Shown here one piece after another: positions 9,582-61,026 of a stretch of DNA of 64,000 nt; position 1 is the first letter of the stretch, and every line of letters begins with the position of its first letter. The translations under genes and the position numbers were made by a program. The stretch spans positions 32,001-96,000 of IMG/VR virus record IMGVR_UViG_3300045988_143931; one strand, 5' to 3'. The notes beneath the pieces are model-generated. The model made no database searches and was not told the origin of the DNA. It saw only the letters and a list, made by a program, of their open reading frames with translations. The stretch comes from a virus.

Positions 9582-9779
9582 TTATTTGAACTCTATCTTG
9601 TTCCTTTTTAATACTTTAACTGCCTTATCATAATCAGTTTCAGCTACTTTGATATTTTTCATCTTAGTTGGTTTTGGCTTAATCCAATGACGGCATTCAG
9701 TAATGTTTTCGTCATACCACATCAAACCGCTTTCACAATATTTATGCCATTGGCAGTCATTGTTACCACATTTACTCAT
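9582..9779 (-). CDS. hypothetical Cys-containing protein (65 aa)
   Basis: ORF track. SD AAGAGGA lies inside the end of the upstream MTase gene. Confidence 0.55.
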   Translation of the reverse strand: MSKCGNNDCQWHKYCESGLMWYDENITECRHWIKPKPTKMKNIKVAETDYDKAVKVLKRNKIEFK

Positions 9780-10635
9780 TTATGTATCCTCTTACTCTCT
9801 TGCTTCCAACCTCAAAAATATCCTTATCTTTCTCAAAACATATGTAATTCCTATTTGTATTCATAGCTGCGACTGCAGTTGTACAACTTCCTGCACATGA
9901 ATCAAGGACTAAATCGCCTGGATTTGTGTATGTCTTAATCATATACTCGCACAGTGCTAACGGTTTTTGTGTCGGATGCAGACACGATTTTTGTTTGTCG
10001 CTTGCAAAAGTCAGTACACTCCTTGGATAACGGTCGGTTTCACCGCCACCAGATAATTCTTTATTCATTCTTCCATAAATTTCTGTATTATTCTGTGTTT
10101 CTATATACTTTGTATATGAATGAATTGGTGTATGTCCTGTTGTTTTCTGTGGATGATATGTAGGAAGTTTTTTATAGAATATTAAGATGTTTTCATGTGC
10201 CTTCATAGGCATTTTTTTAGCATTTAGATGACCAGTAGCTTGTGTTTTTTCCCATATCCATTTATAACGCAACATACTGAGATTGGAAGCACCTAACACT
10301 TTATCAAAAGGTGTTTGTGCAAATAATGCAATACAACCATTGTCTTTAATAATTCGATTATAATGAGTCCATAAACCGTCTTTTTTATTCTCATAAAACC
10401 AATCTCTTGTATATTCAAGACTACTATTTGTTACTTGAGCCAACTTAAATAAATCTGTTTCATAGAAATATTGTCCTGATAACTCAACGTAATCATTTAA
10501 TGGTAAAACAGAATCCCATTTACAATGAGTTGTTCCATAAGGAAGATCCGTAAGTATAAAATCGACTGACTTATCATCAATCTTTTTCATACCTTCAAGG
10601 CAATCTTCGTTGTATATTTTGTTAATCTCTAACAT
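9772..10635 (-). CDS. beta-class amino DNA methyltransferase (N6-adenine or N4-cytosine)
   Basis: Motif IV DLPYG (FILTDLPYGT) sits near the N-terminus. SAM motif I LVLDSCAGSCTTAVAA sits near the C-terminus. This is the IV-then-I order of beta-class enzymes. Confidence 0.85.
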   Translation of the reverse strand: MLEINKIYNEDCLEGMKKIDDKSVDFILTDLPYGTTHCKWDSVLPLNDYVELSGQYFYETDLFKLAQVTNSSLEYTRDWFYENKKDGLWTHYNRIIKDNGCIALFAQTPFDKVLGASNLSMLRYKWIWEKTQATGHLNAKKMPMKAHENILIFYKKLPTYHPQKTTGHTPIHSYTKYIETQNNTEIYGRMNKELSGGGETDRYPRSVLTFASDKQKSCLHPTQKPLALCEYMIKTYTNPGDLVLDSCAGSCTTAVAAMNTNRNYICFEKDKDIFEVGSKRVRGYINE

Positions 10636-12081: not shown

Positions 12082-12246
12082 TCATTGGTTTTCTACATTT
12101 TTTAGCACATGCCATATTTTATTGACAGTATCGTTTTCATCATCATCGACCACCAAAAACCCTTTATTTTCAAGGGTTTCAACGACCTCTTTTGCTTCAC
12201 ATCCGTAATATGCCTTAATTTCAGCGATTTTCTTTAATTTTGCCAT
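12082..12246 (-). CDS. hypothetical protein (54 aa)
   Basis: Start moved to MAKLKKIAEIK, which has SD AAGAGG. The track's GTG start has no SD and overlaps the MTase. Confidence 0.5.
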   Translation of the reverse strand: MAKLKKIAEIKAYYGCEAKEVVETLENKGFLVVDDDENDTVNKIWHVLKNVENQ

Positions 12247-12325
12247 TTTTACCTCTTTTCTAACCCAATGAAATTCCGCTTTCTTGTGGTCTTGATTTTT
12301 ATACAATATATAGTATTTGTTAAAA

Positions 12326-13537
12326 TCATTTAACACTGTATATTGTTATTTGTTTTTTATGTAAATTTCCCGTATTAATTGCTTTATACAGTCTATTTAG
12401 TGCAACTTCAAATGCACCAATGCCAGAAAAGAAGCTACTCACCCTCAAGTTATCAAATAGATATGGCATAGCCGCATACAATTCAATTAAAGTGTAATAA
12501 ATAACTGCAACAACAATACTGTTTCCTGTCTGTTTATACATCTGATGATCACTAATTCCAGCTTCCTTACAAGCATAATAAGCAGAGTCATCAAAATCCA
12601 TCAATCTAAAGCATTCTAATGTTGTTAATTTCCTTAATACTTCGTCTTTTTCAATTTTAGGACAATTGCTATGACCTGCTGTATGTGTTTTCGAAATACC
12701 ATTAGGATCTAAAATTACACCATCTTGTGACGAATTTATCTTTCCTTTTACTAATATCTGTTTTGGTTGTTTGTATGTAGTAGCATCAATTGTTGACATA
12801 TATTCGTTAATGTCATATACCCAATGTCTACTATTTGTACCTTTGCCTGTTCCAACAGTTGTTCCAAGAACCTTATATTCATTCCCACATGGATATTTTT
12901 CACTTTTTTGACTCTCTTTAAATCGTTGGTAATACTCTTCAGATAAATAATACTTATTCTCTACTTCTGATTCTGGTTGCAATAAATCTTTCAATCTTAT
13001 ATCGCTATCAAAAGGTTTATGAAAATGAAACTTACCATTGTCAATATCTTTTCTAATACTTACAATTATTACTCGCTCTCTATTTTGAGGAACACCATAG
13101 TCCTTGGCATTAAGTACTTTCCAATACGAATTATATCCAGCTTGATCTAAATCTGATAAAACTGTCTCAAACTCCTTTTTAAATCTCTTACTAACCAAAT
13201 TCTTGACATTTTCTATAATAGAAAACTTTGGCTGCTTATATTTTAAAATTCTTATCCCTTCGTAATACATGCCACTTCTTGTTTTATTACCACTTTCATC
13301 TATAAATCCTTTTTGACTACCGGCAACTGAAATATCAGTACATGGAAAACCCCAGGTCATCAAATCAAAATCGTTTAATTTTGTTTCATCCACTCTTGTT
13401 ATGTCGCCTAAATTCAGTGACTCATCTACATTATGAATGGCACAATAGCTTTTTGTAGCATATTTATCGAACTCGCAGAAGTTCACTAACTTCCAGTTCT
13501 TCTCACAATAATTATTTTTTTCTTTATTCTCTGTCAA
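12326..13537 (-). CDS. DNA cytosine-5 methyltransferase with motif I relocated to the C-terminus (circular permutation)
   Basis: Motif order along the ORF is: II (NFCEFDKYA); IV (GFPCTDISVAG); VI (ENVKNL); VIII (QNRERV); IX (TLECFRLMDF); X (GNSIVV); then the FxGxG motif I (FFSGIGAFEVAL), 35 aa before the stop. TTG start after AAAGGA. Confidence 0.8.
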   Translation of the reverse strand: MTENKEKNNYCEKNWKLVNFCEFDKYATKSYCAIHNVDESLNLGDITRVDETKLNDFDLMTWGFPCTDISVAGSQKGFIDESGNKTRSGMYYEGIRILKYKQPKFSIIENVKNLVSKRFKKEFETVLSDLDQAGYNSYWKVLNAKDYGVPQNRERVIIVSIRKDIDNGKFHFHKPFDSDIRLKDLLQPESEVENKYYLSEEYYQRFKESQKSEKYPCGNEYKVLGTTVGTGKGTNSRHWVYDINEYMSTIDATTYKQPKQILVKGKINSSQDGVILDPNGISKTHTAGHSNCPKIEKDEVLRKLTTLECFRLMDFDDSAYYACKEAGISDHQMYKQTGNSIVVAVIYYTLIELYAAMPYLFDNLRVSSFFSGIGAFEVALNRLYKAINTGNLHKKQITIYSVK

Positions 13538-13725
13538 AATCCTTTAATCTACAGAGATTGCGCAATCATTTATACCTAGAATTTACTGTTAAATCCTTTC
13601 TTCTTAATATTATTTTGTTGTAAAATCACTCGAAAATGGGCACGTCTGCCTAATCAAATGAAAAAAATATTTCTTGTTACTTTTATTTGGAAAGTTTGGC
13701 TGATCAGCCATGAATAGAATTGCTT

Positions 13726-14019
13726 CTATATTAGATTATTCTCTGTTTGAAACTTCTTTAATTCATCTTGAATAATTTTCTGCATATCTTCTTTGTCAAA
13801 AGATATATTTGCAACTGGAATAATATTTGCATTTAGATTAGCATCACCAACAACGGCTTTATCAAATGCATCTAAAAACATTTCTGCGATTTCTTTTTCA
13901 TAAAACCCACACATTCCATCGCAGTTAATATCTGCAATTACTCTTGAAAAGAAATCTTTGAACTTATCAGCTATAAAATCTCGTTCATATTCTCTTGGAA
14001 TATCAATTGTTATTTTCAC
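13726..14019 (-). CDS. hypothetical protein (97 aa)
   Basis: GTG start 7 nt after GAGG. Tight spacing to the macrodomain gene. Confidence 0.55.
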   Translation of the reverse strand: MKITIDIPREYERDFIADKFKDFFSRVIADINCDGMCGFYEKEIAEMFLDAFDKAVVGDANLNANIIPVANISFDKEDMQKIIQDELKKFQTENNLI

Positions 14020-14023
14020 TCTC

Positions 14024-14467
14024 TCACCTCTTACATACTAAAATCTCAACATCCGTATCTGTAAAAACACTTTTTATCTGTTCTGAGACATCATTCCAGT
14101 TCAGCCTATCTAAACCACAACCAATTACAGGCATTGCAATCTTTTTAATATCGTTCTCTAAACAAATCTGTTTCATCTTTTCGAGCGCAAGTCTCATTGT
14201 GATAATTGTTGGCTTGTTGAAATATCTTTCTTTTGTAATAAGATTAAATACCTTACCTTCTAATAAGCAGTCGCCACTAATTCTCTTATGAGTGTACTGA
14301 TTAAGATAATCTGGATATTTTGACTGCAATTTTCTTTTCAAATCAAATCTTTTATTAAACTCAACTACAATTCCTTTACCCATTCCAAAATCAGCACTAA
14401 TACAATGTGCTAAATTGTAATCTTCTGAAACTGTAAACAAGTCTTTATTCTCTTCACTGTATGTCAT
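14024..14467 (-). CDS. macrodomain protein, TARG1/C6orf130-like (ADP-ribose hydrolase family)
   Basis: LAHCISADFGMGKGIVVEF and IAMPVIGCGLDRLNW closely mirror the TARG1-type macrodomain signature blocks. Size (147 aa) fits. Confidence 0.8.
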   Translation of the reverse strand: MTYSEENKDLFTVSEDYNLAHCISADFGMGKGIVVEFNKRFDLKRKLQSKYPDYLNQYTHKRISGDCLLEGKVFNLITKERYFNKPTIITMRLALEKMKQICLENDIKKIAMPVIGCGLDRLNWNDVSEQIKSVFTDTDVEILVCKR

Positions 14468-30082: not shown

Positions 30083-31084
30083 TTACATATTGTTTAACAC
30101 ATCTTTCATCCCCACTGCACCATTTGCATAATTATTAACTGTTGTATTTACATTACTATGTCCTAACTGCTGCTGTACAAATGCAAGATTTCCATTTCTG
30201 TTCATTATACTAGCATAATAATGACGCATCATATGTGGTGTTATACCATTTCCATAATTCTCAAATATCTGTTTGATATTTCTTTCTGTTGTACGAGTTC
30301 CATTTTTATTTACAAACACAGCTTCTGTATCAATAATGTTACTTAATGTGCTTCTGTATTCTAACCACTCTCTTATAGCTTTTAAAGCAGATCCGCTAAG
30401 ATATACCATTCTATTTTGCATTTCTCTGTACACACCTTTACCAAGAATAGTAATATAAGGCATTTCTTCATCTAAATGCAAATTAGATAAATCCAAACCA
30501 GCAAGTTCAGATTCTCTTATTCCAGTTCCTCTTAATACTCGAAAAATAGCAATATTTCTATTTCTTACTGAAATATCCTTTTTCCACATTATTTTTTCTT
30601 CCATATCATTAAGTTGCTTTTCTGTTGGAAGTTTTTTAGTTAAATTGTTTCCAGATGGAATCCCTTTATAAGTTACATCTTTAAAGAATCCATCTTTAAT
30701 TTCAGTTCCCTTCACTCTACTCATATAATCCCAAAAACTACTTATTATATGTTTTCTAGTTTCTAATGTCGTAGGTGACATTCCATTCTGTTCTTTAGTC
30801 TTTAAATATAACGTGATATCTTCTGCCATAATGTCAGTAAAATCTGATGGCTCAATATCTGAAATATTTGTTTTATCAATAAGTTTCTCTTCAATAAACC
30901 AATTGAGCAAATCTACAATAACTCCAAGATAATTTAAAGCACCTGCTTTACTTTCAATTTTAACAGTGAAATATTTTCTCATATATATAGGAAAATTTAA
31001 CTCATCCAACTTCCTATTAAGCTTTTCAGCATTTTTGTTTTGTACTTCTATTTTGTAACACATATTCATCAACCTCACTTTCAT
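30083..31084 (-). CDS. tyrosine recombinase/integrase A
   Basis: Catalytic pattern: GTGIRESEL (R), HMMRHYYAS (HxxR), LGHSNVNTTVNNY (H...Y). The start is uncertain because it overlaps the upstream ORF. Confidence 0.85.
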   Translation of the reverse strand: MKVRLMNMCYKIEVQNKNAEKLNRKLDELNFPIYMRKYFTVKIESKAGALNYLGVIVDLLNWFIEEKLIDKTNISDIEPSDFTDIMAEDITLYLKTKEQNGMSPTTLETRKHIISSFWDYMSRVKGTEIKDGFFKDVTYKGIPSGNNLTKKLPTEKQLNDMEEKIMWKKDISVRNRNIAIFRVLRGTGIRESELAGLDLSNLHLDEEMPYITILGKGVYREMQNRMVYLSGSALKAIREWLEYRSTLSNIIDTEAVFVNKNGTRTTERNIKQIFENYGNGITPHMMRHYYASIMNRNGNLAFVQQQLGHSNVNTTVNNYANGAVGMKDVLNNM

Positions 31085-31969: not shown

Positions 31970-32257
31970 TCATATACAAAATTTCTGCCCACATTGAGGA
32001 CAATATGTATTTGTAGAATATACATTACTACCACAAATACTACACCGATGTACAATTTTTGATTTTCCCAACAAGCCAAATTCTCTTTCGTTAGTTGTTG
32101 GGATTCTCTTTTGCTTTCTTACACATTCTTCTATAGTATCTATATTAGCCATTAAATCTTTAATATCACCAACAGTTATAACTCCATTTTCATTACTATA
32201 TGCAATTTTAAATTGTTGTATGGAAATCAATGCCGCATTTATTTCTTCTTCATACAT
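31970..32257 (-). CDS. hypothetical protein with C-terminal zinc ribbon (95 aa)
   Basis: CSICGSN...YCPQCGQKF. Confidence 0.6.
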   Translation of the reverse strand: MYEEEINAALISIQQFKIAYSNENGVITVGDIKDLMANIDTIEECVRKQKRIPTTNEREFGLLGKSKIVHRCSICGSNVYSTNTYCPQCGQKFCI

Positions 32258-35133: not shown

Positions 35134-36153
35134 TTAAAAAATAGATTTTGCAATTATATTAGCAGCCATATCATTATACTGATTTAAATTATTTTTCAAA
35201 TATATCTTTGTTGTTTCGGTTCTAGCATGTCCTAATAACTGCTGAACCACATATATATTTTCATCTGTCTTTCCCAACATAATATTTGCAAACGAAGCCC
35301 TTAATTTATGAGGTGTTACTGAATATCCAAGAGCTTCCTTTGTATATTTTATAACAATATCAGATAATGATCTTTGTGTCATACGAGTTTTTGATTTTGA
35401 AATGAATAACGCATCTTCATTTTTATCTATTATTTTTTCTCGATCACACATCCAATCTAAAATAGCCTTTTCTAATTGAGAACTCATAGTAAAAGTCCTG
35501 TCTTTATGCCCCTTCTCAATTACACTTTTAATAATATGATTTTCAAAATCAATATCTTCAACATTGATTTCGCTTAATGCTGTTTCACGTATTCCAGTTT
35601 GCATAAATAACATCATAATTGCTCTGTCTCTTGATTTCCATTTATATTGCATAGCAACTGACCTTCTATTTCCTGCTCCACATTCTACAGCCAATAGTAC
35701 TTCTTTTAAATCATCTTCATCTAAGAATTTTCTATTAACAAAATCTTCTCCACGAACCCTTTTTATTTTATTCATAGGATTTTCAGTTATATAATCATTC
35801 TCCGTTAAGAAATCAAAAAAACTTTTTAATACACTATGATAACATTTCCTGTAAGATAATGAAGATTGTTTTTTATTTCCATTATTATCTGTTATATATT
35901 CTATTGAATCCAAAAAACGAGTAATGTCAAACTTTGTTATTTCAATAACTTTAATATGTTTAATATCACTCGGATTAATGTAATATAAAAATTTTGCTAT
36001 TTTTCTTATATATTCTCTACATGCTGTTGGTTGCCTTCCTGATTTAAATTCATAATAATATTCTGTTACATATTGTGGTAATAAAGACAATATTTCTTTT
36101 ATATTTTTTTCTATTTGTAATGAATGTTCTAATCTACCTTTCATTTTTATCAC
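35134..36153 (-). CDS. tyrosine recombinase/integrase B (start possibly ATG at 36144)
   Basis: Catalytic pattern: QTGIRETAL (R), TPHKLRASFAN (HxLR), LGHARTETTKIYL (H...Y). Confidence 0.85.
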   Translation of the reverse strand: MIKMKGRLEHSLQIEKNIKEILSLLPQYVTEYYYEFKSGRQPTACREYIRKIAKFLYYINPSDIKHIKVIEITKFDITRFLDSIEYITDNNGNKKQSSLSYRKCYHSVLKSFFDFLTENDYITENPMNKIKRVRGEDFVNRKFLDEDDLKEVLLAVECGAGNRRSVAMQYKWKSRDRAIMMLFMQTGIRETALSEINVEDIDFENHIIKSVIEKGHKDRTFTMSSQLEKAILDWMCDREKIIDKNEDALFISKSKTRMTQRSLSDIVIKYTKEALGYSVTPHKLRASFANIMLGKTDENIYVVQQLLGHARTETTKIYLKNNLNQYNDMAANIIAKSIF

Positions 36154-60051: not shown

Positions 60052-61026
60052 ATGGAACAAAAAGAATTAAAAATCGATCCTGAATTAAGGGATTTATTAC
60101 CACCACTTACTGATGATGAGTACAAACAGCTCGAAAAAAATATTGTAGAAAATGGATTTGATAAAAATTTTCCTATTATGGAATGGCATGGATTCATTGT
60201 GGATGGACACAATCGCTATTCTATCTGTAAAAAACACAATATTGAGTACGTTGTTGGTACTCTTGGGTATGAGACGAAGGATGAAGTTATGGAATGGATG
60301 TTGGATATCCAACTTGGCAGACGCAACTTATCTCCTATTCAAAGAATTGCTGTGGCTGAAAAGTATCGACCTATTTATGAAAAGCAAGCAAAAGAAAGAC
60401 AGGCTACTTCAACTGGTGGAGCTAATCCACAGCTTACACCAAATCTGGTGGAAGCTGACAAAACTAATAATCGTTCAGAAAATGAAACCAATTCAAAGTT
60501 GGCTAAAATTGCAAATGTTGGAAAAGAAACTTATAGACAAGCAAAACGTGTTCTTGATTCAAATAATGAAGAACTTAAGAATCGTGTTTTATCAGGTAAA
60601 ACTTCTATTAGTGCTGGCTATAAAGAATTACAGAATGAGAAGAAAAAAGAACAAATATCTGATAATAAAGATAGAGAATATAATACTGAACCACCAACCA
60701 CACCCTCTCCTACTATTCAACCTTCTCAATCGTCTCAAAAAAATCAAGTTAGTGAAGAGGTAAGGCAAATATGCGAAGACCTTAAAACTGAAAAGTCAAA
60801 AGAATATCTTGATTCTATTTGGAATTACAAGATTGACATAATTGAATGTATGAATACTGGATTTGAAAGATTTTATGATGGATTTGTTAGTATTCTTAAT
60901 GATATGGAAAATCGTGTAACTAAATCAGAATTAGATGAATGCATTACCAATGCGGAGAATAATATAGCAAAACTATTAACCGCTATTGAATTAGCAAAAA
61001 AAATAACATTAAAAACGGAGGATTAG
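60052..61026 (+). CDS. ParB/Srx-fold N-terminal domain protein with C-terminal HTH-like region (324 aa)
   Basis: LLPPLTDDEYKQLEKNIVENGF..PIMEW.GFIVDGHNRYSICKKH is a typical ParB-N block. SD GAAAGGAAAG. Confidence 0.7.
   Translation: MEQKELKIDPELRDLLPPLTDDEYKQLEKNIVENGFDKNFPIMEWHGFIVDGHNRYSICKKHNIEYVVGTLGYETKDEVMEWMLDIQLGRRNLSPIQRIAVAEKYRPIYEKQAKERQATSTGGANPQLTPNLVEADKTNNRSENETNSKLAKIANVGKETYRQAKRVLDSNNEELKNRVLSGKTSISAGYKELQNEKKKEQISDNKDREYNTEPPTTPSPTIQPSQSSQKNQVSEEVRQICEDLKTEKSKEYLDSIWNYKIDIIECMNTGFERFYDGFVSILNDMENRVTKSELDECITNAENNIAKLLTAIELAKKITLKTED

Follow-up and report, generated by a model that had tools for sequence, protein, structure and literature searches.

A phage gene predicted to encode a C5 DNA methyltransferase with motif I at its C-terminus belongs to a widespread circularly permuted family

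C5 DNA methyltransferases (C5-MTases) are a textbook case of nearly fixed motif order. Here we describe a gene on the minus strand at 12326-13537 of a 64,000-nucleotide stretch of viral DNA (positions 32,001 to 96,000 of IMG/VR virus record IMGVR_UViG_3300045988_143931; this whole stretch is called the window). Judged from its sequence, the product is a C5 DNA methyltransferase in which motifs II through X come first and motif I stands at the C-terminus. The natural permuted prokaryotic enzymes described so far, namely M.BssHII, M.Alw26I, M2.Eco31I, M.Esp3I, M2.BsaI, and about 22 relatives in REBASE, are all broken in the variable region, at the domain boundary (PMC5944983). The 2018 study that compiled them engineered ten types of permutation, concluded that nature uses just one, and reported no natural enzyme of the order II-X then I in REBASE (PMC5944983). 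Two of the engineered CG-specific enzymes, cp35M.MpeI and cp33M.SssI, have their old termini fused directly and were active in vivo, cp35M.MpeI being poorly soluble (Slaska-Kiss et al. 2018; PMC5944983). A topology classification published in 2025 places m5C enzymes in two classes only, C (canonical) and F (M2.Eco31I-like).

The gene forms an intact open reading frame (ORF) of 403 amino acids (aa) with a TTG start. Its product scores 233 bits against PF00145 (cut-off 22; E = 6e-69), with profile positions 22-318 of 324 lying on aa 15-349, and 241.7 bits against TIGR00675 (cut-off 100.65), where the match covers profile positions 20-322 of 329. Neither profile's N-terminal stretch, which covers motif I, finds a match at the start of the protein. 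In addition to these scores, motifs IV, VI, VIII, and X and motif I of the C5-MTase class are present; the canonical I-to-X order is absent. The original prediction quoted a series of motif strings, all of which occur in the order it gave. Its C-terminal placement of motif I also holds, whereas its distance of 35 residues before the stop is only approximate: motif I starts 40 aa from the stop and ends 23 residues short of the protein end, and its FSGIG sequence (aa 370-374) lies 30-34 aa from the stop. The variable region occupies approximately aa 196-298, between motifs VIII and IX. The parts of the gene, each followed by the evidence for it, are as follows.

12326..13537, minus strand: whole ORF including the stop codon, predicted permuted C5 DNA methyltransferase (ORF list, Pfam, NCBIfam, motif positions)
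13457..13495, minus strand: motif II WKLVNFCEFDKYA, aa 15-27, strand beta2, the first structured element, with E22 invariant (motif, conservation, model)
13319..13351, minus strand: motif IV GFPCTDISVAG, aa 63-73, with predicted catalytic Cys66 (motif, PDB alignment)
13205..13213, minus strand: motif VI ENV, aa 109-111 (motif, conservation)
13070..13087, minus strand: motif VIII QNRERV, aa 151-156 (motif, conservation)
12749..12877, minus strand: variable-region module A YKVLGTTVGTGKGTN...KQPKQILV, aa 221-263, shared with the canonical Bacillus phage JBP901 gp139 (alignment, module survey)
12650..12748, minus strand: variable-region module B KGKINSSQDGV...CPKIE, aa 264-296, modeled with low confidence (alignment, model, module survey)
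12593..12637, minus strand: motif IX LRKLTTLECFRLMDF, aa 301-315 (motif, PDB alignment)
12467..12526, minus strand: motif X GNSIVV (aa 338-343) and its helix, together aa 338-357 (motif, model)
12449..12466, minus strand: linker PYLFDN, aa 358-363, family-specific, bridging the former C-terminus to the former N-terminus (homologue alignment, conservation)
12398..12448, minus strand: motif I LRVSSFFSGIGAFEVAL, aa 364-380, comprising strand beta1, the S-adenosylmethionine (AdoMet) loop, and the start of helix A (motif, conservation, model)
12329..12376, minus strand: C-terminal tail past helix A, aa 388-403, with a homopolymer at 12353-12358 (alignment of relatives)
13538..13725, minus strand: non-coding upstream region of 188 nucleotides (nt) without motif I, its proximal ~150 nt nearly identical in two independent metagenome contigs (six-frame translation, contig comparison)

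Alignments to non-permuted enzymes wrap around the ends of the protein. A phmmer search of the PDB retrieved M.HhaI (E = 4e-38) and aligned aa 363-381 to its residues 11-29, which contain motif I. When the query was doubled, residues 2-330 of JBP901 gp139 aligned as a single high-scoring segment pair (E = 3e-107) that starts at residue 362 of copy one, crosses the junction, and ends at residue 354 of copy two. A wrap-around alignment to non-permuted phage homologues had been anticipated in the original prediction, and it is what we observe with JBP901 gp139. When the sequence is de-permuted (aa 362-392 followed by aa 14-361), it aligns over its full length with JBP901 gp139 at 49% identity and with M.HhaI residues 12-327 at 31%. 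The latter value is supportive only; the M.HhaI sequence used agrees with the segments returned by the PDB search.

The catalytic set is present (P65-C66, E109-N110-V111, Q151/R153/R155, and G338-N339), which bears on whether the protein could be a degenerate or repurposed homologue that acts on RNA, transfers another group, or binds DNA and no longer methylates that of the phage. The C5-MTase fold does occur in Dnmt2 tRNA methylases and in a C5-carboxymethyltransferase, both found among the weaker Foldseek structure matches, and our searches found no published biochemistry for the family. However, all catalytic motifs of DNA m5C enzymes are intact and conserved, the nearest relatives are the classical DNA m5C methylases M.HhaI, phi3T, and JBP901, and the variable region holds modules of the target-recognition domain (TRD) type like those of DNA enzymes. 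We therefore regard repurposing as highly improbable.

A motif I encoded upstream, by an exon, across an intron, or in a split gene, was ruled out. No motif-I-like (FxGxG-like) peptide appears in any frame of a six-frame translation of 13538-14400, and all homologues start just before motif II. The 188-nt gap directly upstream (13538-13725) contains neither an ORF nor motif I, as had been proposed. The related proposal that the start is not mis-called is borne out by two other assemblies that share the start and the upstream DNA, and by homologues that begin 14-19 aa before motif II. A scan for promoters and terminators returned sites no more numerous than in shuffled sequence.

The permuted order is not confined to the window. 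A protein search yielded more than 8000 candidates, and order and spacing were inspected in the best 120 hits. These homologues are 377-679 aa long and 49-99% identical to the query over the best local alignment; in all 120, motif IV falls around residue 60, and motif I follows motif X at a distance of exactly 30 residues. In 105 of them the chain stops 31 residues past the beginning of motif I, in the conserved tail ...DRLYESINTGNFTKPQVE. With only the C-terminal 108 aa (IX-X-linker-I) as query, HMMER identified 257 clusters (50% identity) at E <= 1e-10 among 1.84 billion cluster representatives, and the top 150 of these all cross the X-to-I junction in one stretch. In an alignment of 78 diverse members, down to 34% identity, the C-terminal motif I keeps S371, G372, G374, and E377 without exception; conservation reaches at least 90% at linker positions P358 and F361, and the catalytic residues are either invariant or at that level. 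This conservation of motif I, the linker, and the catalytic residues indicates a functional element under selection. Family members are found in genomes and metagenome-assembled genomes of Clostridia, Lachnospiraceae, Lacrimispora, Romboutsia, and Megamonas and on Caudoviricetes contigs; one resides on a 1.8-Mb contig, which fits a chromosome-borne and possibly prophage copy.

In two metagenome contigs from different samples (L002 and L003), the gene is 99% identical, begins at the same TTG, and shares its upstream DNA and the small gene downstream. The sole difference within the gene is a run of six adenines in the window at 12353-12358, past helix A, where the contigs have five. The longer run shifts the frame of the last codons, so that the protein ends in ...NLHKKQITIYSVK (403 aa) rather than ...NLHKNK (396 aa). 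The difference is probably harmless and could represent a real polymorphism or a homopolymer sequencing error. It lends some uncertainty to the tail sequence at the extreme 3' end, and to that extent it speaks for an artefact of assembly or sequencing, or for a single rearranged pseudogene, in which case the motif order would have no biological meaning. Nevertheless, start, upstream DNA, and gene order coincide in two independent metagenome assemblies; all 120 best homologues, and no fewer than 150 clusters at 50% identity, have this order at a fixed spacing of 30 aa; and the reading frame is intact, with catalytic and AdoMet-binding residues conserved family-wide. The chance of an artefact is negligible in our estimation, and the original prediction's concern that an assembly error had created the arrangement is answered by the same recurrence. 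A megablast search of the region against GenBank phages produced no match, indicating that no annotated close relative is present in that collection.

We next consider the predicted structure, for which an AlphaFold2 (AF2) model was built from a diverse alignment of 78 permuted members. The model has a mean predicted local distance difference test score (pLDDT) of 85.7 and a predicted template modeling score of 0.85. It contains a strand at residues 15-21 (beta2), a strand at 364-369 (beta1), and a helix at 375-389 (helix A). Residues 360-390 reach pLDDT 94-97, and low confidence is confined to the first 9 residues, module B (aa 267-295), and the last 3 residues. In a Foldseek search, complexes of M.HhaI ranked first (probability 1.00; TM-score 0.74-0.78 normalized by target length), in keeping with the two-domain fold of C5-MTases. 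M.HhaI is the enzyme on which the original prediction proposed to superpose a predicted structure. A BFVD structure search was uninformative on topology. According to the model, the chain would begin at beta2 (motif II) and continue through IV, VI, VIII, two target-recognition modules, IX, and X; the motif X helix would then lead through the 6-residue linker PYLFDN into beta1 and the FSGIG AdoMet loop, and helix A would close the chain. The break would fall in the surface loop between helix A and beta2, with the old N- and C-termini joined, and the folded enzyme should therefore equal a canonical one.

An alternative is that the protein works only as a domain-swapped homodimer, in which C-terminal beta1 and helix A of one chain complete the AdoMet site of the other. 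In its favor, one of the elements that must pair is N-terminal and the other C-terminal, and the linker has only 6 residues. Plant DRM enzymes, which have the same X-to-I junction, crystallize as dimers, a further point for this alternative. On the other side, AF2 confidently predicts aa 360-390 of a monomer in cis, the engineered cp35M.MpeI and cp33M.SssI contain no special linker, and the termini of canonical enzymes are adjacent (PMC5944983). An obligatory swap is accordingly very unlikely in our view. The original prediction called the arrangement structurally reasonable, an assessment that gains support from the AF2 model, the X-to-I junction of DRM, and the active engineered enzymes.

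In our judgment it is very probable that the gene encodes a functional, single-chain permuted C5-MTase of a conserved family. Several observations weigh against this conclusion. Our searches found no published activity for the window enzyme or for any family member of the order II-X, I. A first AF2 run from a shallow alignment of 36 sequences reached a pLDDT of 60.7, did not form beta2, and was discarded. The low confidence of module B in the second model counts on the same side, as does the fact that the position of beta1 between beta2 and beta4 is inferred from model confidence and secondary structure rather than from coordinates. The sequence AAAGGA at the TTG start (13535-13545, minus strand) lies just 2 nt upstream of it, which is unusually close for a Shine-Dalgarno sequence; the same arrangement of AAAGGA, 2-nt spacer, and TTG is present in L002 and L003, and no in-frame ATG occurs before residue 60.

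By the established mechanism of the family, AdoMet would be held by the C-terminal motif I, E22 of motif II, and motif X. The target cytosine would be flipped out and attacked at C6 by Cys66, with E109 and R153/R155 assisting, and modules A and B would specify one or two short target sequences. Module A is the lone module in the 333-aa JBP901 gp139. Module B, an insertion that gp139 lacks, adds 34 aa and is seen again in other members of the family. Across the 120 homologues, eight recurring modules form more than 30 combinations of one to six, a mosaic that resembles the pattern of the multispecific Bacillus phage methylases (SPR / phi3T / rho11s type), in whose variable region several target-recognition domains stand in tandem, one for each specificity. 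The presence of two modules, together with this mosaic, suggests that the enzyme is probably bi-specific. Its most likely role is that of an orphan phage methylase that protects phage DNA from host Type II restriction, an ordinary function that the topology would leave unaltered.

Some members of the family carry insertions or additional domains. In P0188, P0214, and P0142, an intein (Pfam Hint_2 / Intein_splicing) is located exactly at the catalytic Pro-Cys of motif IV, and P0142 also has an HNH-plus-AP2 endonuclease-like insertion within helix A, after the C-terminal motif I. TRD-like modules continue past motif I and helix A in P0213, P0262, and P0127, and P0213 apparently consists of just IX-X-I plus TRD-like modules; these proteins hint at split-subunit or further rearranged versions of the enzyme. 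In the two related contigs, the small downstream gene is followed by an IS605-type TnpB (OrfB_IS605 and Cas12f1-like_TNB; L002 4776-6005 and L003 2463-3698). In the window, the small gene has no ORF of TnpB size directly after it.

How might such an order have arisen? The original prediction invoked a tandem duplication followed by trimming at both ends, and its plausibility has gained from two observations: joining the C-terminus of JBP901 gp139 (GNSIVVDVAEEILHNLFKV*) to its N-terminus (MEKIKLLSLFSGIG) reproduces the window junction within about five residues, and gp139 is one of three C5-MTase genes that lie in direct tandem in JBP901, a related Bacillus phage. The phi3T N-terminus KLRVMSLFSGIGAFEAAL also resembles the window sequence NLRVSSFFSGIGAFEVAL. 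Junction geometry, tandem genes, and the phi3T N-terminus together make fusion with trimming a plausible origin. Two tandem methylase genes of an SPbeta/phi3T/JBP901-like phage would have fused in frame in a single event, the first motif I and everything past the second motif I would have been lost, and the permuted form would then have passed to phages and prophages across gut Clostridia and other Bacillota. The PYLF linker, being conserved, points to one event. Against this scenario, no clean duplication intermediate was found, the sole candidate being a contig of low coverage (L086, 3.5x). At 204-1292 it encodes a single ORF (P0230) with the order IX-X-(PYLF linker)-I-II-IV-Zn ribbon-VI-VIII, and TRD-like pieces are found in the ORFs directly upstream and downstream. 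P0230 could be a fused tandem, that is, a duplication intermediate, another permutation frame, or the result of frameshift errors. A regular-expression screen for X-I-II intermediates gave six hits that proved to be false positives on inspection; only P0230 was genuine.

The regular expressions with which REBASE was searched in 2018 would match the motifs of this family, yet none of the 27 natural permutants recovered belongs to it (S5 Dataset, PMC5944983). In the window protein, IX-X follow VIII at aa 301-343, and the order is distinct from the M.BssHII type, as had been claimed. Full-text literature searches, with direct REBASE query and subscription journals outside their scope, found no description of a natural II-X, I order. 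The topology thus appears to be real, widespread, and unrecognized as a natural class, its members being annotated as ordinary C5 methylases. The word "novel" in the original prediction seems apt for the recognition of this order as a natural class; it does not apply in the sense of a feature peculiar to this phage, since public databases hold a large family and an engineered equivalent has been published.

We lean slightly toward a broader proposal: that II-X, I constitutes a third natural class of prokaryotic C5-MTases beside the canonical and M.BssHII-type enzymes, that it arose once in phages by tandem fusion, and that its X-to-I module may serve as a base for further rearrangements. Hints of the latter come from members in which IX-X-I is followed by II-VIII or by TRD-like modules. 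A break inside the AdoMet-binding domain contradicts the published generalization that natural permutation occurs only in the variable region and would mean that evolution has reached at least one topology considered "laboratory-only". The duplication-fusion-truncation model of circular permutation could be tested on this natural family. Annotation pipelines that depend on motif order or are anchored at the N-terminus would mis-describe hundreds of phage methylase clusters.

The surroundings of the gene are those of a phage or large mobile element, with many genes that match only PHROGs, an RNA ligase, a macro-domain-like protein, and two tyrosine integrases. No recognizable endonuclease adjoins the gene; the flanking small ORFs at 12082-12336 and 13726-14019 have no Pfam or PHROG match, although either could encode a nuclease that these profiles miss. 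An N6/N4 amino-type DNA methyltransferase (9772-10635, minus strand; PF01555, E = 2e-27; phrog_67) is encoded 1.7 kb downstream of the C5 gene, which gives the element at least two putative orphan methylases. The two integrase genes (tyrosine-recombinase- or integrase-like; phrog_1 / phrog_216) occupy 30083-31084 and 35134-36153, both on the minus strand, with about 4 kb between them, and 60052-61026 (plus strand) encodes a ParB-like nuclease. On the basis of the two integrase-like genes and the ParB-like gene, the element may be a temperate phage or phage-plasmid.

The window protein shares its ten motifs, catalytic residues, and predicted fold with M.HhaI, JBP901 gp139, and the phi3T/SPbeta-type enzymes. 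JBP901 gp139 shows 50% identity over II-X and has a module A of identical type. Canonical phage methylases also share the phage setting and probably the orphan state, and modules make up the variable region much as they do in the multispecific Bacillus phage enzymes. In canonical enzymes, motif I, beta1, and helix A are N-terminal, whereas in the window family they follow X by way of the PYLF(D/E) linker. The M.BssHII type ("Type H"; class F of Samokhina and Alexeevski; zeta class) is likewise a natural permutation in which X covalently precedes I, but there IX-X precede I-VIII, whereas the break in the window protein lies between I and II, inside the catalytic domain. The motif X helix is also contiguous with beta1 and motif I in plant DRM1/DRM2 (4ONJ, 7L4C), and a segment of tobacco NtDRM (4ONJ), whose linker is 3 residues shorter, aligns directly to aa 325-390. 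DRM enzymes differ in being eukaryotic, in having UBA domains and a role in RNA-directed DNA methylation, and in their order of VI-X then I-V; in the window protein, II-V come before VI. The break point coincides with that of the engineered cp35M.MpeI and cp33M.SssI, whose new N-terminus lies in the loop between motifs I and II; M.MpeI was cut at N35 ("...ARSK|NWEIQ..."), and the equivalent loop of the window protein reads "...EK|NWKLVNF...". Both engineered enzymes are laboratory constructs, whereas the window protein comes from a large family of natural enzymes whose linker and tail are conserved.

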